Assembly (NCBI RefSeq): GCF_001294465.1
Contig: NZ_LGAA01000006.1
Location: 106,950-170,949 of the forward strand
From: Moellerella wisconsensis ATCC 35017
GTDB taxonomy: Bacteria; Pseudomonadota; Gammaproteobacteria; Enterobacterales; Enterobacteriaceae
Direction: 5' to 3'
Length of the DNA: 64,000 nucleotides
The notes below the pieces were generated by a model, which saw nothing but the letters and a program-made list of their open reading frames with translations, was not told where the DNA came from and did not search any database. Shown here one piece after another: positions 28,873-38,856 of the stretch; within the stretch, counting starts at the first letter, position 1, and the number at the start of each line of letters is the position of its first letter. The position numbers and the translations under genes are program-made.

Positions 28873-29784
28873 ATGTATTATGGTTTCGATATGGGTGGCA
28901 CCAAAATAGAACTTGCTGTTTTTGACAACGACCTGAATCAAATTTGGCAAAAACGTCTACCTACGCCAAAAGAAGACTATCAATTACTATTAAATATCTT
29001 TAAAACACTCACTGATGAAGCCGATGCCCTATTTAATTGTCAGGGTAAAATTGGCGTAGGTGTGCCTGGGATAGTCAATCACCAACAAGGAACTGTATTT
29101 ACTACTAATGTTCCTGCCGCTCAATATAAACCATTAATTAAAGACTTAACCGAAAAACTGGGTCGCCCAGTAAAAGTTGAAAATGATGCTAATTGCTTCG
29201 CGTTATCCGAAGCTTGGGATAAAGAGTTTATTCAATACCCTACCGTATTAGGTTTAATTCTTGGTACGGGTGTGGGTGGCGGCTTTGTCATTAATGGCAA
29301 AGTATTATCCGGTAAAAATGGTATTGCCGGTGAAATCGGTCATATGAATCTCACCTTAGAAGCGAATAAAATATTAGGTGATCGAGTACCACAAATTGTC
29401 TGTGGTTGTGGAAAAATAGGCTGTTTTGAAACCTATTTATCTGGCCCAGGTTTTGAACGCCTCTATTTTTCATATACCGGAGAAAATATATCTGCGGTTG
29501 ATATCATCCAGCATTATCATCAAGGTGAGCAAGACGCCATTTTGCATGTTGAACGTTATATGAATGTGCTCGCCATGTATCTAGGTAATATCGTGACCAT
29601 TTTTGATCCCGATTTATTAGTGATTGGCGGTGGATTATCTCAGTTTGATGAAATTTATCGCTTATTACCTGAAATATTGCCTCGGCATTTATACAGCATC
29701 GCTGAATTACCGGCTATTGAAAAAGCTCGACATGGAGATTCTGGCGGCTCCCGTGGTGCTGCGTTTCTTCAATTAGGCGGATAA
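28873..29784 (+). CDS. nagK: N-acetyl-D-glucosamine kinase (ROK family).
   Basis: MYYGFDMGGTKIELAVFD..., the ROK zinc motif CGCGKIGCFETYLSG and the C-terminus ARHGDSGGSRGAAFL are colinear with E. coli NagK. The start is trimmed to the MYYGFD Met. Confidence 0.85.
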   Translation: MYYGFDMGGTKIELAVFDNDLNQIWQKRLPTPKEDYQLLLNIFKTLTDEADALFNCQGKIGVGVPGIVNHQQGTVFTTNVPAAQYKPLIKDLTEKLGRPVKVENDANCFALSEAWDKEFIQYPTVLGLILGTGVGGGFVINGKVLSGKNGIAGEIGHMNLTLEANKILGDRVPQIVCGCGKIGCFETYLSGPGFERLYFSYTGENISAVDIIQHYHQGEQDAILHVERYMNVLAMYLGNIVTIFDPDLLVIGGGLSQFDEIYRLLPEILPRHLYSIAELPAIEKARHGDSGGSRGAAFLQLGG

Positions 29785-29790
29785 CACAAA

Positions 29791-29835
29791 TCGACGCAGA
29801 ATGTCACTGAACATTCTGCGTCGATTAAATTTTTA
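29791..29835 (+). terminator. Rho-independent terminator after nagK (AATCGACGCAGAATG-tcactgaa-CATTCTGCGTCGATT followed by a T-rich tract).
   Basis: A perfect 15-bp inverted repeat followed by AAATTTTTATTTT. Confidence 0.6.
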
Positions 29836-30120
29836 TTTTCTTCCGGCGCCATTAATTTTCCGTTCTTAATCCAATAAATATTTCCCCTAACTAATTTATA
29901 TATTTATTCTTTTTACTATTTAACTCTCATTAATTGTATTTAATTTAAATAATTGACTTAAATACTCGATTTAATAAATCTTGATATGCCATTTATAATA
30001 AAAACAATAGAATATATTACTATTTAGAGATTAGTCCGATAAAAAACTATCACTAAATAGTAATATAATTTAAAGTCTAATCACCTTGAAAATTTAATGC
30101 ATCTACTCGAGAGAGAGTCC

Positions 30121-30771
30121 ATGGCTTTATTTTTGCAAAATTGTTTAACCTTCCCTAGCATTATATTTAGCGGACTACTCATTATTGTTATTTTTTATTG
30201 GCTATGTGCCGCTGTTGGCCTTCTCGATATTGACCTTTTCCACCTTGATGCAGCAGATTATTCTATCGATGCTAGCCACGGAATTGATACCACTGGGTTT
30301 GCAGGCTGGTTGACTAAACTCGGATTAGCAGGGATCCCCATTACTATTATTTTAACCTTATTTACCTTATTTGGCTGGTTGCTCAGTTATTTTAGTGTTC
30401 ATTGGTTTGTTCGTCATATTGATATTATCTTTTTACGTTATTTAGTGGGTTTCATCGTTTTATTGATTACTGCATTTATTTCTCTTCAGTTAACCGCTAT
30501 TTGTCTCAAACCTATTCGGAATAAATTAATCAAAAATACCCATCATAAAAGTGTTAATGACTTAATAGGGAAAATAGCTATTGTTCGTTCAGGACAAGTT
30601 AATGAAAGCCGCGGAGAAGCCATAATGGAAGACGGTGGTGCAGGATTAATCTTACAAATAAGGGCATCATCCTCCGACAATATTCAACGTGGCACACGAG
30701 TAGTTATTATTAGCTATGATCCAGTAACCCATAGTTATCAGGTCGTCACCGAAGCGGAATTTTCGCACTAA
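30121..30771 (+). CDS. yqiJ: NfeD-like inner-membrane protein YqiJ (DUF1449 plus a C-terminal OB-fold), partner of flotillin YqiK.
   Basis: It has several N-terminal transmembrane helices and a C-terminal soluble beta-rich domain. It sits directly upstream of an SPFH/flotillin gene, the YqiJK arrangement of E. coli. The start is placed at the MALFLQ Met. Confidence 0.7.
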   Translation: MALFLQNCLTFPSIIFSGLLIIVIFYWLCAAVGLLDIDLFHLDAADYSIDASHGIDTTGFAGWLTKLGLAGIPITIILTLFTLFGWLLSYFSVHWFVRHIDIIFLRYLVGFIVLLITAFISLQLTAICLKPIRNKLIKNTHHKSVNDLIGKIAIVRSGQVNESRGEAIMEDGGAGLILQIRASSSDNIQRGTRVVIISYDPVTHSYQVVTEAEFSH

Positions 30772-30898
30772 TTACCTTGCCATACTGCAGTAAATTGCTC
30801 TCTTGGCAGTATGGTTTTATATGCAGCTATTCAGTTTATTAATTTAGCTTTACCCCAAAGACAATGCCTATTGCTACTGACCTCATGGAGAAACAACT

Positions 30899-33103
30899 AT
30901 GGAACTGGCTAATTTAATGCCATTTTTTACGATTATCGGGGTGATTATACTGGTGATCATCGGCTTTTTTGCCTTATTCAAAGCTTTTTATATTAAAGTC
31001 CCTCAAGGGACTGCGTTAATTGTGAACGATATGTCATCGCAGCCTAAAGTCCATTTCACCGGCGCACTCGTTTACCCAGTAATTTACAAAAAAGAATTCA
31101 TGCGGATCTCTTTGCTAACCTTAGAAGTGGATCGCCGTGGTAAAGATGGATTAATTTGTCATGATAATCTGCGAGCGGATATTACTGTGGCATTTTATCT
31201 ACGAGTTAATGAAACCACCGAAGATGTCTTAAAAGTAGCAAAAGCTATCGGCGTTGAACGAGCCTCAGACCATCAAGCTGTTAGCACCTTATTTAGCGCA
31301 AAATTTTCAGAAGCGCTGAAAACTGTCGGTAAGCAATTCGAATTATCCAAGTTATTTGAAGATCGACAAAATTTCCGCGACCGCATTGTCGATGTGATTG
31401 GTAAAGATTTAAATGGTTATGCGCTCGAGGATGTGGCGATTGACTATTTAGAACAAACGCCTAAATCTGCACTCGATCCAAACAATATTTTTGACTCTGA
31501 GGGTATTCGAAAAATCACCGAAATTACGGCGATTCATAATATTGAAACCAACCAGAAAGAACGCGACCAAGAACTGGCTATTCAGAAGAAAAACGTTGAA
31601 ACCCGCGAAGCTAGCTTAGCATTAGAGCGCCAACAAGCAGATGCAGAAGCTCGGCAAAAACGAGAAATTGATAATATTCGTTCCCGTGAACAAGCAGAAA
31701 CGCTGCGAGTTCAAGAGGAAGAGCGCTTAAAATCAGAACAAGCACGCATTCAGACTCAGCAAGAAATTGAAATCCGCGAAGAAAATAGAATGCGCGAAGT
31801 AGAAGTTGCCCAGCAAAATAGAACTCGCGCCGTCACGATTGAAGAAGAACGCGTTACCCGCGCTCGTGAGCTCGAAATTGTCGCCCGTGAACGCGAAGTT
31901 GAATTGCAGCGGATAGAAAAAGAAAAAGCGTTAGAAGAAGAACGTAAAAACATTGCCAGTGTGATCCGCGAACGTGTAGTCGTAGAAAAAACAGTCGCCC
32001 AAGAAGAAGAACGGATTAAAGAAGTACGCGAAGTGTCGGAAGCCGATAGATTACGCCAAGTCACGGTAATCAATGCGCAAGCCGAAGCTGAAGAATCAAT
32101 GGTTCGCCAAGTTAAAAAAGCCGAAGCTGATGAGGCCAGCGCTAAACATAAAGCTGAAGAAATCAGTACCATGGCACAAGCTGAATTAGAAGCCTCTGCC
32201 AAACAGGCTGAATCCAAAAAACGTCTCGCTGAAGGGATTGAAGCAGAACATGCGGCCTTAGGATTAGCCGAAGCAAGAGTACGCCAAGCGACAGCCGAAG
32301 CAGAAGAAAAAGAAGGGCTAGTACAAGCCAATATTACCGCCGAGAAACTGCTGGCTGAAGCTCGCGGTTTAAAAGAAAAAGGCATGACTGAAGCCCAAGT
32401 TCAAGAAGCCAAAGCAGCAGCAGAGCAAAAACAAGGATTTGCTGAAGCCAAAGTGCTGGAAGAAAAGCTGTCAGCCCAAGCACGAGGCGAAGAACAACAG
32501 GCCAATGCTAAAGAAAAATTAGGTTTAGCAGATGCTAAAATCATGGAAGAAAAGTTGGCCGCGCAAGCACGCGGTGAAGGTCAATTAGGCGCAGCACAAG
32601 CGGAAGTTATTCGCCAACGTCTGAAAGCCGAAGCGGATGGGTTAACCGATAAATTCAAATCAATGGATCATCTTAGCGATACTGCTCGCGCGCATGAAGA
32701 ATTCCGTATGCGCCTTGAAAAAGAATTTGAGCAGTCAATGGCTTCAATTGCTGCCAATAAAGAAATCGCGCGAGAACAAGCGGATGTACTCGCAGCTGCA
32801 CTGGCAAAAACTAACATCGATATCGTCGGCGGCGACGGTAGCTTCTTTAATACTTTCTCAAAAGCTCTCAGCTTGGGCAAAGCGGTTGATGGATTTATGG
32901 ATAAAAGCAGTTATGCCAAAGAAAGCGTTGAAAAACTGCTCAATTATAAAAAAGACAGTCAATCTGTCGATATTGCCGCTTTACTGCAAAATCCTGAAGT
33001 TCAAGAGTTAGTTACCCAATTTATGGCGGCCAATAACGCCAAAAATACGCTACCTAAGCCGGTCCAACCTAATAAGCCAGAGAAATCTAGCGACGATATT
33101 TAG
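30899..33103 (+). CDS. yqiK: Flotillin-like SPFH/band-7 protein YqiK. At 734 aa it is about 180 aa longer than E. coli YqiK.
   Basis: It has an N-terminal transmembrane helix, an SPFH domain, and a long E/A/R/Q-rich flotillin coiled coil with repeated AEAKVLEEKLSAQARGE / ADAKIMEEKLAAQARGE units. Confidence 0.85.
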   Translation: MELANLMPFFTIIGVIILVIIGFFALFKAFYIKVPQGTALIVNDMSSQPKVHFTGALVYPVIYKKEFMRISLLTLEVDRRGKDGLICHDNLRADITVAFYLRVNETTEDVLKVAKAIGVERASDHQAVSTLFSAKFSEALKTVGKQFELSKLFEDRQNFRDRIVDVIGKDLNGYALEDVAIDYLEQTPKSALDPNNIFDSEGIRKITEITAIHNIETNQKERDQELAIQKKNVETREASLALERQQADAEARQKREIDNIRSREQAETLRVQEEERLKSEQARIQTQQEIEIREENRMREVEVAQQNRTRAVTIEEERVTRARELEIVAREREVELQRIEKEKALEEERKNIASVIRERVVVEKTVAQEEERIKEVREVSEADRLRQVTVINAQAEAEESMVRQVKKAEADEASAKHKAEEISTMAQAELEASAKQAESKKRLAEGIEAEHAALGLAEARVRQATAEAEEKEGLVQANITAEKLLAEARGLKEKGMTEAQVQEAKAAAEQKQGFAEAKVLEEKLSAQARGEEQQANAKEKLGLADAKIMEEKLAAQARGEGQLGAAQAEVIRQRLKAEADGLTDKFKSMDHLSDTARAHEEFRMRLEKEFEQSMASIAANKEIAREQADVLAAALAKTNIDIVGGDGSFFNTFSKALSLGKAVDGFMDKSSYAKESVEKLLNYKKDSQSVDIAALLQNPEVQELVTQFMAANNAKNTLPKPVQPNKPEKSSDDI

Positions 33104-33188
33104 TGGCTCTTTTTTGCCATTCTCACTATCTCCGGCAGAAGCAGAAATAGCCTGCCGGAGAGATTCGGGTATACATTAAGCCAAGGAA

Positions 33189-36100
33189 ATGTATCGCATC
33201 ATGTCAGACAAACAGCAAACAGAACATCAACAGGAATTGCTCGATAGCGCTGTAGCAGAAGGCGGAGCCTATGAAATACTGCGTAAGCGCCTGACTGACC
33301 AAGGACAACAACTAAGCCAGCGAGCAATCGAACTGAATGATCTGCGTCTGGAAGAATTTGGCCACAGTCAAATGGATATCATTGGCCGTATTCGTATTCG
33401 CAGTGAGAATAATTGCCAAGCAAGAGATATTGTCAGAGTCGGTGAATGGTTACTGTTTGGCTATAATGTTTTTCTCGGCCTAAAAAAAGAAACTCAAGTT
33501 GAAGATGTATTTTCCCTGTATCGCTTAGTCGAACAACAAGGGGAATTTGATGTTGAATCCGTACCGCTAGAAGAAACCTTTTTAAATATTCCCAGCTTTG
33601 TACAGGATTTTACCGAGCTATATACCTATTATAAAAATACTCAATTATTACAACTCGTTGAACGTGATGGAAAATTATTAGCCAGTTTTCAAATTGGTGA
33701 ACGTCTCACCGATGTACGCGTTTTTCGTTGGTCAATTTCTAGCGATAAAAAAACGATTAGCTATTTAGATAATCGTGGTGAACGTGATATTGCCCTGCCC
33801 CCCGCCTATGATTTTGAATGGTATAAAACTACGCGAGAAAATACCGTTAATGGTCGCTATCCACATATCAATATTCTCGATACGGTATTTGTTGAAACAA
33901 TTGGCGGTGACCTCACAATTAAATGTGAAAATAATACCGAAGATGGGTTAGGTATTTATCGTGAAGCGGTACTCGACAAAAATCAGTCTCTTGATGATGC
34001 CCAAATAGAATATGCACAAACAGGCACTCTGATTTTACTGAAAATTCTACCATACCGCGAAGATAACTGGCGTTACCTCGTGTATAACATCATAACCCAA
34101 TCGGTACAGCGAATAGACGCAATTGGTCAGGCCTGCGTTCAACTACCAGAAGATCACGGTATTATTTTTCCCGGCGGTTATTATTTGCAAAGTGGCGAAT
34201 ACAAAACCTTCGAGCAGCCGATGGAAGGTATGCGCTTTCGGCGTACTCGCCGTTCCCCCAATGGGGAAGACGTTTTATATGTGTTTTATTCACCCAATCA
34301 AGGACGTATCGCACTCTTCAATTATAATTTAATTGAGCGAAAGCTAAATATTCCACTACTCGGTCACGGCTATGCCATGTTGGAAGATGGCAAAATGGTG
34401 CTGTTCGAAGGACAAAGTGAAGAACCAACCCGTGTACACCCAATGCAAGTATGGCAAACGCCATTCTATTCAGATGAATACGCCGATCAACAACCGCCAC
34501 GAAACAGTTTTTTAGGCCGAATCGGTAATGCAGATTTAGTGCGCGGTATTTCTGATGTCCTGCATATCGCCAAAGAAATTGAAGGCCAACAAATTTCAGC
34601 GGCGCGTTATGAGCAACTCAGCCAACAGCCTCGACGTCTAATCGATATTTACTATTGGCTTAACGATGCCCAAAGCTTAAATCTTGGGGAATTACTCAAA
34701 GATATCGCGCAAACCAGTGAACGGGTTCTGGATGAATACGAAAAAGTTGAAAGTATTCGTCGTCAATCGATCAAAGCCCTTAATCAAGCCACGAGTCGCC
34801 AAAAATCGCTGCTCACCTTAATGGTCCCGGACAGTTGGTCAGATATTCAGCAATTTGTCGATAGCTTAAATCAACTTAATACACAACGGGGACATTTAAT
34901 CTCCTTGAGAGAGCTCCGCTATATGGATCTCTCTCAGTTAGAAAGCATGGAGCAAGAAATCGCTGTTACTCAACAGCTTATCTCTCAAGCTACCGCCGAT
35001 TTTTTAGCCAGTGAAAAAGCTTTACAACCACTGATCAAGCAATTACAGCGTCTTGAAGAACAAACACAAAAAGCCACAAATAGTGCTCAGCTCGAAATAC
35101 CAATGTCTGGTATTGAACAAATGTCAGCGGATCTCGATATGCTGTCTAATTTAATGGCCTCACTTAAATTTGAAGATGCCACACAACAAACGCAAATTAT
35201 CGAAGCTATTTCTGAAATTTACGCTAAATTAAACCAAACGCGAGCACGCCTACAACAAAAACGTAAACAACAAGGCGCGGTTGAATCTGTTGCTCAATTC
35301 GCTGCGCAATTTAGACTATTTAGCCAAGGGATCACTAATGCGTTAGCGCTCGCTTCCACCCCTGAATATTGTGATGATCAGCTATCACGTTTACTCATTC
35401 AGCTCGAAGAACTGGAAAGTCAATTTAGTGCGCATGATGAGTTTTTAGACAATATTCTAGCAAAGCGTGAAGAACTACTCGAAACCTTTGAATCTCACAA
35501 ACAAACGCTATTAGATGAGCGCCAAAGAAAATCACAAAATCTACAAACTGCCGCAGACAGATTACTTGAAAGCCTCTTGCGCCGGACATCTCGCTTACAG
35601 TCATTAGATGAGCTTAATGCTTTCTTTGCCTCTGATCCTCTGAGTTTAAAAACTCGAGAGATCATCGAAAAATTACGCGAGCTAAAAGATAACGTAAAAG
35701 CTGATGATATTGATGCGCGCCTTAAATCTGCACGTGATCAAGCCATTCGTAGTCTGCGAGATAAAACTGATATTTTTGAAGATAATGGTAATATTATTCG
35801 CCTTGGGCCTCGCCATAGATTTAGCGTAAATACCCAACAGCCAGACCTGACTATTTTGCCTAAAGATAATCAGTTATGGCTCTATTTAACCGGCACTGAT
35901 TATCAAGAACCGATTATTAGCCCCGAACTGGAAAAATTGCAGCCTTATTGGAGCGTGTCGTTAGAATCAGAATCAGCAACAGTATATCGTGCTGAATACC
36001 TTGCCTATTCAATTATTTATGCAGCTAGCAAACGGCAAGATGGTTTAAGCATTGAACAACTCACGGCTGAACTAACCCAGCCAGAAAAATTGGCTAAAAC

Positions 36101-38141
36101 CGTACGCGATTTTGCTGCGCCTCGATATAAAGAAGGTTACGAAAAAGGCATTCACGATCACGATGCTATCGCGATTCTGAAACAATTAATTCCTGTGGCC
36201 CAAAATGCAGATTTACTGCGCTTTAATCCGACAGCACGAGCCATTGCGACCTTATTTTGGCAACAAAAACAGCATGAAGAACAGCCAGCATTGTGGCCAG
36301 AGCGAGCCAGAACCTCAATCAATATTCGACAATTATTCCATAACGATGAAGCTTTAAATGATTTACAGGCCGAAATTGAGGCAGATATTAGCTTGTTCTT
36401 AGAGCAGCATCCTATTCCTAGTGCAAACCATCAACAAACGGAAGCCGCAGAGTATTTAAGTTTGGCATTAGCACGTACGCCAATAGAATTCAGTTACAGC
36501 AAATATGCTCGCGAATTGGTCGAATCGCTGCAAATAGAACTTGAAAAAGCCCATATGTGGATTGATTTCAATCGCTCACAACAAAACTTAACTCAACGCC
36601 ATGCACAGCGCTGGGCATTAATTCAAAATTGGTTACAAGGATTATGTTCTCGGGCTGAATATTCCCATCTGGCACCTTATATTCCGGGCGCAATTGCGGT
36701 ACTCATGTTAGAAAAAACAGCAACCGCCCGTTATAGTGAAGTAGACCTCTATTTTAAAGTTTCAGGTCTGCTGGGGGAACATCCGCTTATCGATAATACT
36801 ACGCTGCATCTAAGTCTGGATAATTATTTCAGCCGTATGCGAGAACAACGCAAACAATTTATACCGGCCTTCCGCCAATACCAAGAGCTACGCCAACAGG
36901 TACTCACTACAGAGCGGCAGCGTATTAGACTGCATGAGTTTAAAGCTCAGCCATTAAGTTCTTTTGTACGCAATAAGCTGATAAATGATGTTTATCTGCC
37001 CATTATCGGCGACAATATGGCCAAACAGATTGGTGCTCTCGGCGAAACTAAGCGTACCGATTTGATGGGGTTATTATTGATGATCTCGCCCCCTGGCTAC
37101 GGAAAAACCACTTTAATGGAATATGTCGCCGATCGGCTAGGGTTGATATTTATGAAAATAAATGCGCCCGCATTAGGGCATAATGTTCTTTCGCTCGATC
37201 CAGAACAAGCGCCAAATGCAACGGCCAAACAAGAACTAGAAAAACTCAATTTGGCCTTAGAAATGGGTAATAATGTGATGTTATATATCGATGATATTCA
37301 ACACACTCACCCAGAATTTCTGCAAAAATTTATTTCATTATGTGATGGTACACGACGTATTGAGGGGGTTTGGAAAGGTCAAACCAAAACCTACGATCTG
37401 CGCGGCAAAAAATTCTGTGTGGTAATGGCAGGTAACCCATATACCGAATCTGGCGAGCTATTCAAAATTCCAGATATGTTAGCCAACCGCGCAGATATCT
37501 ACAATTTAGGCGAAGTGCTTGGCGGTATGGATGAAGCCTTTGCATTGAGCTATATTGAAAACAGTTTAACCTCGAATGCGATTCTGGCACCATTAGCTTT
37601 ACGCGATATGAATGATTTGTATCTCTTTGTTGATAAAGCCATGGGTAAATCGGTTTCTACCAACTCACTAAGTTATCCGTATTCAGATGCTGAAATCAGT
37701 GAAATTGTAGCCGTCATTCAACGAATTGCCAGCCTACGTGATGTCGTATTAAAAGTTAATCAACAATATATTGCTAGCGCCGCACAGTCTGATAAATACC
37801 GAACAGAACCACCGTTCAAATTACAAGGCAGCTATCGTAATATGAATAAACTGAGTGAAAAAATATCCTCAGTGATGGATAACAACGAGCTTAACCGTTT
37901 ATTAGATGATCATTATCTCGGGGAAGCCCAATTATTGACGACAGGAGCAGAAGAAAATCTGCTTAAATTAGCTGAAATCCGCGGTACACTCAGTGAAAAA
38001 GACGCTTTACGCTGGGCTCAAATTAAACGTGACTTTATGCGCAATAAAAATTTAGGCGGCGATAATAGCGATGTTGGTAACCGAATGGTTGCGCAATTAG
38101 CGGATTTAGTCGAAAGCGTTCAATCATTAAAAATAAATTAG
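33189..38141 (+). CDS. Giant 1650-aa protein of unknown function. The N-terminal roughly 430 aa are beta-rich, the central roughly 800 aa are coiled-coil-rich, and the C-terminus (about aa 1255-1505) is a dynein/MoxR-like AAA+ ATPase module.
   Basis: Walker A ISPPGYGKTT lies at 37083..37112. Walker B-like VMLYIDDIQ follows. The sensor-1/arginine region CVVMAGNPYTESGELFKIPDMLANRADIY resembles the dynein/midasin/MoxR (AAA_5) pattern M-NP-Y...PD-L..R. There is an AAGGA Shine-Dalgarno 3 nt upstream of the start. It is tightly linked on the same strand to yqiJK upstream and to a rhomboid gene 10 nt downstream. Confidence 0.6.
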   Translation: MYRIMSDKQQTEHQQELLDSAVAEGGAYEILRKRLTDQGQQLSQRAIELNDLRLEEFGHSQMDIIGRIRIRSENNCQARDIVRVGEWLLFGYNVFLGLKKETQVEDVFSLYRLVEQQGEFDVESVPLEETFLNIPSFVQDFTELYTYYKNTQLLQLVERDGKLLASFQIGERLTDVRVFRWSISSDKKTISYLDNRGERDIALPPAYDFEWYKTTRENTVNGRYPHINILDTVFVETIGGDLTIKCENNTEDGLGIYREAVLDKNQSLDDAQIEYAQTGTLILLKILPYREDNWRYLVYNIITQSVQRIDAIGQACVQLPEDHGIIFPGGYYLQSGEYKTFEQPMEGMRFRRTRRSPNGEDVLYVFYSPNQGRIALFNYNLIERKLNIPLLGHGYAMLEDGKMVLFEGQSEEPTRVHPMQVWQTPFYSDEYADQQPPRNSFLGRIGNADLVRGISDVLHIAKEIEGQQISAARYEQLSQQPRRLIDIYYWLNDAQSLNLGELLKDIAQTSERVLDEYEKVESIRRQSIKALNQATSRQKSLLTLMVPDSWSDIQQFVDSLNQLNTQRGHLISLRELRYMDLSQLESMEQEIAVTQQLISQATADFLASEKALQPLIKQLQRLEEQTQKATNSAQLEIPMSGIEQMSADLDMLSNLMASLKFEDATQQTQIIEAISEIYAKLNQTRARLQQKRKQQGAVESVAQFAAQFRLFSQGITNALALASTPEYCDDQLSRLLIQLEELESQFSAHDEFLDNILAKREELLETFESHKQTLLDERQRKSQNLQTAADRLLESLLRRTSRLQSLDELNAFFASDPLSLKTREIIEKLRELKDNVKADDIDARLKSARDQAIRSLRDKTDIFEDNGNIIRLGPRHRFSVNTQQPDLTILPKDNQLWLYLTGTDYQEPIISPELEKLQPYWSVSLESESATVYRAEYLAYSIIYAASKRQDGLSIEQLTAELTQPEKLAKTVRDFAAPRYKEGYEKGIHDHDAIAILKQLIPVAQNADLLRFNPTARAIATLFWQQKQHEEQPALWPERARTSINIRQLFHNDEALNDLQAEIEADISLFLEQHPIPSANHQQTEAAEYLSLALARTPIEFSYSKYARELVESLQIELEKAHMWIDFNRSQQNLTQRHAQRWALIQNWLQGLCSRAEYSHLAPYIPGAIAVLMLEKTATARYSEVDLYFKVSGLLGEHPLIDNTTLHLSLDNYFSRMREQRKQFIPAFRQYQELRQQVLTTERQRIRLHEFKAQPLSSFVRNKLINDVYLPIIGDNMAKQIGALGETKRTDLMGLLLMISPPGYGKTTLMEYVADRLGLIFMKINAPALGHNVLSLDPEQAPNATAKQELEKLNLALEMGNNVMLYIDDIQHTHPEFLQKFISLCDGTRRIEGVWKGQTKTYDLRGKKFCVVMAGNPYTESGELFKIPDMLANRADIYNLGEVLGGMDEAFALSYIENSLTSNAILAPLALRDMNDLYLFVDKAMGKSVSTNSLSYPYSDAEISEIVAVIQRIASLRDVVLKVNQQYIASAAQSDKYRTEPPFKLQGSYRNMNKLSEKISSVMDNNELNRLLDDHYLGEAQLLTTGAEENLLKLAEIRGTLSEKDALRWAQIKRDFMRNKNLGGDNSDVGNRMVAQLADLVESVQSLKIN

Positions 38142-38151
38142 AGTGAGATAA

Positions 38152-38742
38152 ATGAAACTAAACTCAATAAAGATATGGCTAAAACAGCGACTGTTATTTT
38201 TATTGGGTTTAGCGCTACTATTAATCTTATTACAGCTGATAAATAGTCTCACTGCCGGAGGGTTGCTCTATTTTGGGCTTGTTCCGCGCTCAAGTCATGG
38301 ATTAATTGGTATTTTTTGTGCTCCATTTATTCACGGCAGTTGGGGGCATCTCTTCAGCAATTTACCACCGTTACTTATTATGAGCGGTTTATTGCTGTAT
38401 CAATCGATTAGGCAATTTATTTACGCCTCGCTGTTTATCATTATTATGGGCGGCTTACTGGTTTGGTTATTTGGTAGCTCGGCTATTCATATCGGAGCAA
38501 GTGGATGGATCTTCGGGCTATGGGCACTACTTCTGACGCAAGGCGTGCTGCGCCGTAATAAAATCGATATTATTATTGCCGTGATAGTTTTAATTTATTT
38601 TGGTGGTATGGCGAGCGGCCTACTGCCTGGGCAGCAATATATATCGACTAGTTCGCACTTATCAGGCGCAATCGCCGGCGTTTTATATGGCTGGATATTA
38701 CGTAAAAAAGCAATCGGTAGAAAAAACACTAACGCCGCATAA
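38152..38742 (+). CDS. Minimal 196-aa rhomboid-family intramembrane serine protease (6-TM core only).
   Basis: It has about six predicted transmembrane helices. The GxSG catalytic serine motif is HIGASGWIFG, and the catalytic histidine sits in the AHxxGxxxG-type motif SSHLSGAIAGVLYG. Confidence 0.65.
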   Translation: MKLNSIKIWLKQRLLFLLGLALLLILLQLINSLTAGGLLYFGLVPRSSHGLIGIFCAPFIHGSWGHLFSNLPPLLIMSGLLLYQSIRQFIYASLFIIIMGGLLVWLFGSSAIHIGASGWIFGLWALLLTQGVLRRNKIDIIIAVIVLIYFGGMASGLLPGQQYISTSSHLSGAIAGVLYGWILRKKAIGRKNTNAA

Positions 38743-38856
38743 AAAAACTGAGCCATTGAATTACATTATTGATACATCAAGATCACATCATTAATATTCT
38801 GGCTCAGTTTTCAATCGCTAATAATAACGCACTAATTAAAAGTTAATTAAACCATT

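Follow-up and report, generated by a model that had tools for sequence, protein, structure and literature searches.

Four genes on the forward strand of the window (the whole 64-kb stretch of Moellerella DNA that was analysed) encode a YqiJ-like protein, a flotillin, a giant ATPase and a rhomboid protease of 224, 734, 1650 and 196 aa, respectively. An ORF check returned exactly the coordinates given in a preliminary description of this DNA, as well as its intergenic gaps of 127, 85 and 10 nt, the last separating the ATPase stop from the rhomboid start codon. The strong terminators proposed for the two flanks are also real hairpins: that 3′ of nagK has 7 GC pairs in its stem and T-runs on both strands, while the downstream stem-loop (ΔG −22.1 kcal/mol, z −4.87, 0/200 shuffles as stable) is followed by convergent genes for GNA1162-like, DUF4810 and CsgG-like lipoproteins. 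Given this spacing and these bounds, the four genes constitute one tightly spaced, terminator-bounded unit, a predicted operon, as the earlier view of a single module had it. Its site, asd-nagK-...-glmS, is conserved between Moellerella and Providencia as part of the core genome.

Features of the locus and its edges (positions are those of the window)
Feature	Position	Strand	Basis
Bidirectional terminator-like hairpin 3′ of nagK, upstream edge of module	29789..29826	none	16–17 bp stem
Candidate sigma-70 promoter TTAATA-17-TATAAT in AT-rich spacer 5′ of first gene	29971..29999	+	weak evidence
YqiJ/YuaF-like 3-TM protein with C-terminal beta domain (‘short NfeD’), BacC/PA3730 homolog	30097..30771	+	
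Flotillin-family SPFH protein, YqiK-like, BacD/PA3729/PaFlo3 homolog	30899..33103	+	
Giant cytoplasmic ATPase, DUF3686/DUF7902 family, BacE/PA3728 homolog	33189..38141	+	
Beta-propeller domain of giant ATPase, aa ~63–423	33375..34457	+	all-beta in model
AAA+ core of giant ATPase, aa ~1290–1450	37056..37538	+	motifs
Short core-only rhomboid intramembrane serine protease	38152..38742	+	Pfam Rhomboid, 73.6 bits
Long stem-loop then U-run, downstream edge of module	38744..38811	none	folding energy vs shuffles

The candidate promoter matches the sigma-70 consensus at 10/12 positions, although such sites are no commoner in this region than in shuffles. No sigma-54 −24/−12 element was present in 29781–30100, in contrast to P. 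aeruginosa bacA, and no homolog of PspA, DUF2170 or PLD was encoded in the window; regulation may therefore differ from that in P. aeruginosa.

Three conserved partners

The YqiJ-like protein, in which three hydrophobic segments are read as TMs, probably starts at Met9 (nt 30121), as judged by comparison with orthologs. It shares 40% identity with PA3730, and the profile of its family aligned with E. coli YqiJ (hhalign probability 90%, E 1.6e-6). The Pfam NfeD domain fell below threshold (14.2 vs 29.1 bits), and Pfam YqiJ_N matched only 3/33 family members. The flotillin comprises an N-terminal membrane anchor (one TM segment, aa 9–27), an SPFH domain (aa 33–181, nt 30995–31441) and a long coiled coil. 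At full length it gave no Pfam match; residues 1–219 alone matched Band_7 above threshold (29.5 vs 23.6 bits). Identity was 70% with PA3729 and 30% over 454 aa with E. coli YqiK (E 8e-48). Comparison of flotillin N-termini from rhomboid-linked and unlinked operons revealed no distinguishing feature.

The giant ATPase matched Pfam DUF3686 (672 bits) and DUF7902 (91.5 bits), together with AAA and AAA_5, bearing out the AAA_5/MoxR-like tail first ascribed to it. AlphaFold models (pLDDT 84.7 and 87.8) and Foldseek searches, as suggested in the preliminary description, resolved in order an N-terminal helical hairpin, a beta-propeller, ~400 aa of long helices, a small beta domain, a helical domain, one MoxR-like AAA+ module and a C-terminal helical domain. 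Foldseek related the propeller to WD40/DCAF, CyRPA, Ski8, sialidase and prolyl-oligopeptidase propellers (E 1e-6 to 1e-4), and the fold of the protein was nearest to MoxR chaperone-like ATPases. The AAA+ core contains Walker A (SPPGYGKTT, K1306), Walker B (hhhhDDIQH, D1368/D1369) and the invariant residues N1416 and R1434. No classic aromatic pore loop is seen in the conserved stretch after strand β2, and Walker B has DD in place of DE; substrate threading by this ATPase is therefore uncertain. Topology prediction gave no TM segment for the ATPase, a soluble PLD, one TM for the flotillin and three for the YqiJ-like protein.

Over its 1650 aa the ATPase shares 65% identity with PA3728 of P. aeruginosa (BacE; match labelled P0077), whose gene context is DUF2170-PspA-213aa-688aa-ATPase-PLD. 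Full-length homologs were found in four phyla, every one with a flotillin neighbour and none with a known function. Ilumatobacter, Streptomyces and Polyangiales all retain the triad of YqiJ-like protein, flotillin and ATPase; on a Pirellulales contig that ends early, flotillin alone was seen beside the ATPase. Among scorable metagenomic ATPase loci, 43/51 carried the YqiJ-like protein, and flotillin was nearly always there. Comparison across genomes thus shows the first three genes to be an ancient multi-phylum triad.

The rhomboid as an optional fourth member

The catalytic set of the rhomboid is intact, with Ser117 (nt 38500–38502) in the GASG motif as first described, His169 (nt 38656–38658) and an H61/H66/N70 motif in TM2. 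The histidine motif is SHLSGAIAG, so that an S-H pair replaces the A-H originally read there. Catalytic residues were invariant among 20 aligned subfamily members. An identification as rhombosortase was rejected (TIGR03902 29.7 bits, cut-off 84).

Of the loci with a rhomboid of this subfamily, 69 could be scored: the ATPase lay directly upstream in 33 and within 3.8 kb in a further 4, had left only remnants in 2, and was missing from 30. Where the two are adjacent, the junction is tight: the median gap is ~3 nt, with overlap in 13/40. The common order is ATPase-rhomboid-PLD (rhomboid-to-PLD gap ≤32 nt in 17/20), and one clade (L112, L113 and L150) has the rhomboid upstream, in the order PspA-rhomboid-YqiJ-flotillin-ATPase. 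Pairwise identities of ATPase and rhomboid correlated at r = 0.91 (999 permutations, none above 0.17), a co-divergence also expected from shared species phylogeny. These comparisons show the rhomboid to be often coupled to the ATPase, to judge from the junctions translationally, and to have diverged with it; a functional link is supported by junctions that are tight, and often overlap, across many lineages.

Viewed from the ATPase, the partnership is looser. The rhomboid lay downstream at 7/67 scorable ATPase loci and upstream at 3 more; overall, about 10% of sampled ATPase loci carry it. A ‘dedicated’ protease, as had been supposed, is not supported: Proteus, where the gene directly follows nagK, as well as Morganella, Photorhabdus and Sphingomonadales keep the rhomboid with no linked ATPase, and in some Xenorhabdus and Limnobaculum it stands next to what is left of a decayed ATPase gene, indicating that a function independent of the ATPase exists or is possible.

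The same observations bear on the strongest alternative, that the rhomboid is a mere neighbour, an independent housekeeping protease carried along by synteny from an ancestor, with the triad as the functional module. The 30 loci missing the ATPase fit this, as do the triad of Proteus, encoded away from its nagK-rhomboid pair, the unlinked rhomboids of Morganella and Photorhabdus, the outlasting of decayed ATPase genes at L030, L031 and L040, and the lack of a rhomboid at some 85–90% of sampled ATPase loci and in triads of other phyla. However, the two genes stay adjacent in five or more orders of Gammaproteobacteria, at rhomboid identities as low as 41–50% and far past ordinary synteny decay; 26/40 junctions are ≤7 nt or overlapping; and the rhomboid sits between ATPase and PLD, or, at L112 and L150, in a second within-operon arrangement. 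We regard simple neighbourhood as rather unlikely, if deserving of serious consideration. On these gene neighbourhoods the rhomboid, shown to be accessory in Gammaproteobacteria and to keep its predicted catalytic set, is a recurrent optional fourth member of the operon there.

A possible role in stressed membranes

We think it fairly probable, taking identity and mechanism jointly, that the locus is a shortened, rhomboid-bearing form of the BAC/Psp-associated flotillin operon and that its products work as scaffold, ATPase and rhomboid. The YqiJ-like protein and flotillin would form an SPFH scaffold or cage on the cytoplasmic side of the inner membrane, delimiting a patch of stressed membrane. 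The MoxR-like cytoplasmic ATPase, probably hexameric, would use its beta-propeller and coiled-coil arms for docking and spend ATP on remodelling, assembling or disassembling the scaffold or its clients, one of which, where encoded, may be the ESCRT-III-like polymer PspA. In or beside this patch the rhomboid would cut transmembrane segments, possibly those of damaged or orphan membrane proteins, or else the N-out anchors by which flotillin or the YqiJ-like protein is held, to allow their removal. The rhomboid's accessory position is filled in sister operons by a PLD-family hydrolase or M90 metalloprotease.

A role in conflict, raised in the preliminary description and taken here as anti-phage or inter-bacterial, would have flotillin and ATPase sense attack on the envelope and the rhomboid or PLD act as effector, through abortive infection or self-damage. 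PA3728–PA3732 are indeed up in every phage-infected P. aeruginosa sample, the variable accessory slot (rhomboid, PLD or M90 protease) recalls swappable effectors, and a large NTPase is included. Induction together with PspA, however, amounts to a generic phage-shock response to membrane stress; PADLOC matched none of the four proteins, the site belongs to the syntenic core genome, the distribution of the triad over phyla is vertical, and 65% identity over the full ATPase between Pseudomonas and Morganellaceae is unusual conservation. The conflict idea thus fared poorly, and we hold it to be improbable. The reading of the giant protein as a DNA repair ATPase with irrelevant membrane neighbours is effectively refuted by context, since the names that suggest it (Pfam ‘ATPase involved in DNA repair’, NCBI ‘DNA repair ATPase’) and weak P-loop-level matches to RuvB, far under threshold (16.9 vs 282 bits) and confined to the Walker A region, stand against a closest fold among MoxR chaperone-like ATPases, no detected DNA-binding domain, no paper from a full-text literature search on ‘DUF3686’, and a gene consistently encoded with flotillin and YqiJ-like membrane protein and co-transcribed with PspA.

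Relation to known systems

The membrane-stress reading agrees with what is known of relatives. In P. aeruginosa, bacABCDEF (PA3732–PA3727), a Psp-like ‘biofilm-associated cluster’ verified as an operon by RT-PCR, encodes DUF2170, PspA, a YqiJ-like protein, flotillin, the BacE ATPase and PLD, and all its members rise together, 6- to 13-fold, in a bacA mutant (Wallart 2024, PMC10948618); PA3731 is induced by osmotic shock. Comparative genomics of PSP systems described an operon of flotillin, YqiJ/YuaF and a ‘novel AAA+ ATPase with coiled-coil and beta-propeller’ (Ravi et al. 2024, PMC11237479), features that our ATPase models confirm. The three-gene core is the published membrane-stress module bacC-bacD-bacE, and the preliminary opinion that the giant protein fits no described system is not supported. 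What survives of the ‘undescribed system’ is the rhomboid, whose membership appears unreported: Ravi et al. give PLD as an occasional extra and never a rhomboid (0 mentions in the text and one supplement), and it is absent from Wallart 2024 too.

The first three window genes match BacC, BacD and BacE (40%, 70% and 65%) in order and orientation, but bacA (DUF2170/YjfI-like), bacB (PspA), bacF (PLD) and the sigma-54 promoter are missing, and the rhomboid directly follows the bacE homolog, whereas P. aeruginosa has no rhomboid. Some other Pseudomonas species and Cellvibrionaceae carry all seven genes. The NfeD-flotillin pairs yqiJK of E. coli and yuaF-floT of B. subtilis share a homologous two-gene core, although the window flotillin is longer by ~180 coiled-coil residues. 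As originally pointed out, ATPase and rhomboid are not part of canonical yqiJK, neither being found downstream in E. coli. MoxR AAA+ ATPases (CbbQ, NorQ, RavA) are about 270–500 aa and normally paired with a VWA-domain partner; the window protein, in contrast, has 1650 aa, an N-terminal propeller and coiled coil, and no VWA gene nearby.

The mitochondrial SPY complex (STOML2/SLP2-PARL-YME1L) and ER erlin1/2-RHBDL4-p97, both implicated in membrane protein quality control, bring together the same three component classes: SPFH scaffold, rhomboid protease and AAA+ ATPase. The likeness is one of analogy rather than orthology, and unlike YME1L and p97 the window ATPase is MoxR-like rather than classical AAA and has no protease domain. 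By that analogy, the overall logic of the locus would resemble that of the SLP2-PARL-YME1L hub in mitochondria and the erlin-RHBDL4-p97 hub in the ER.

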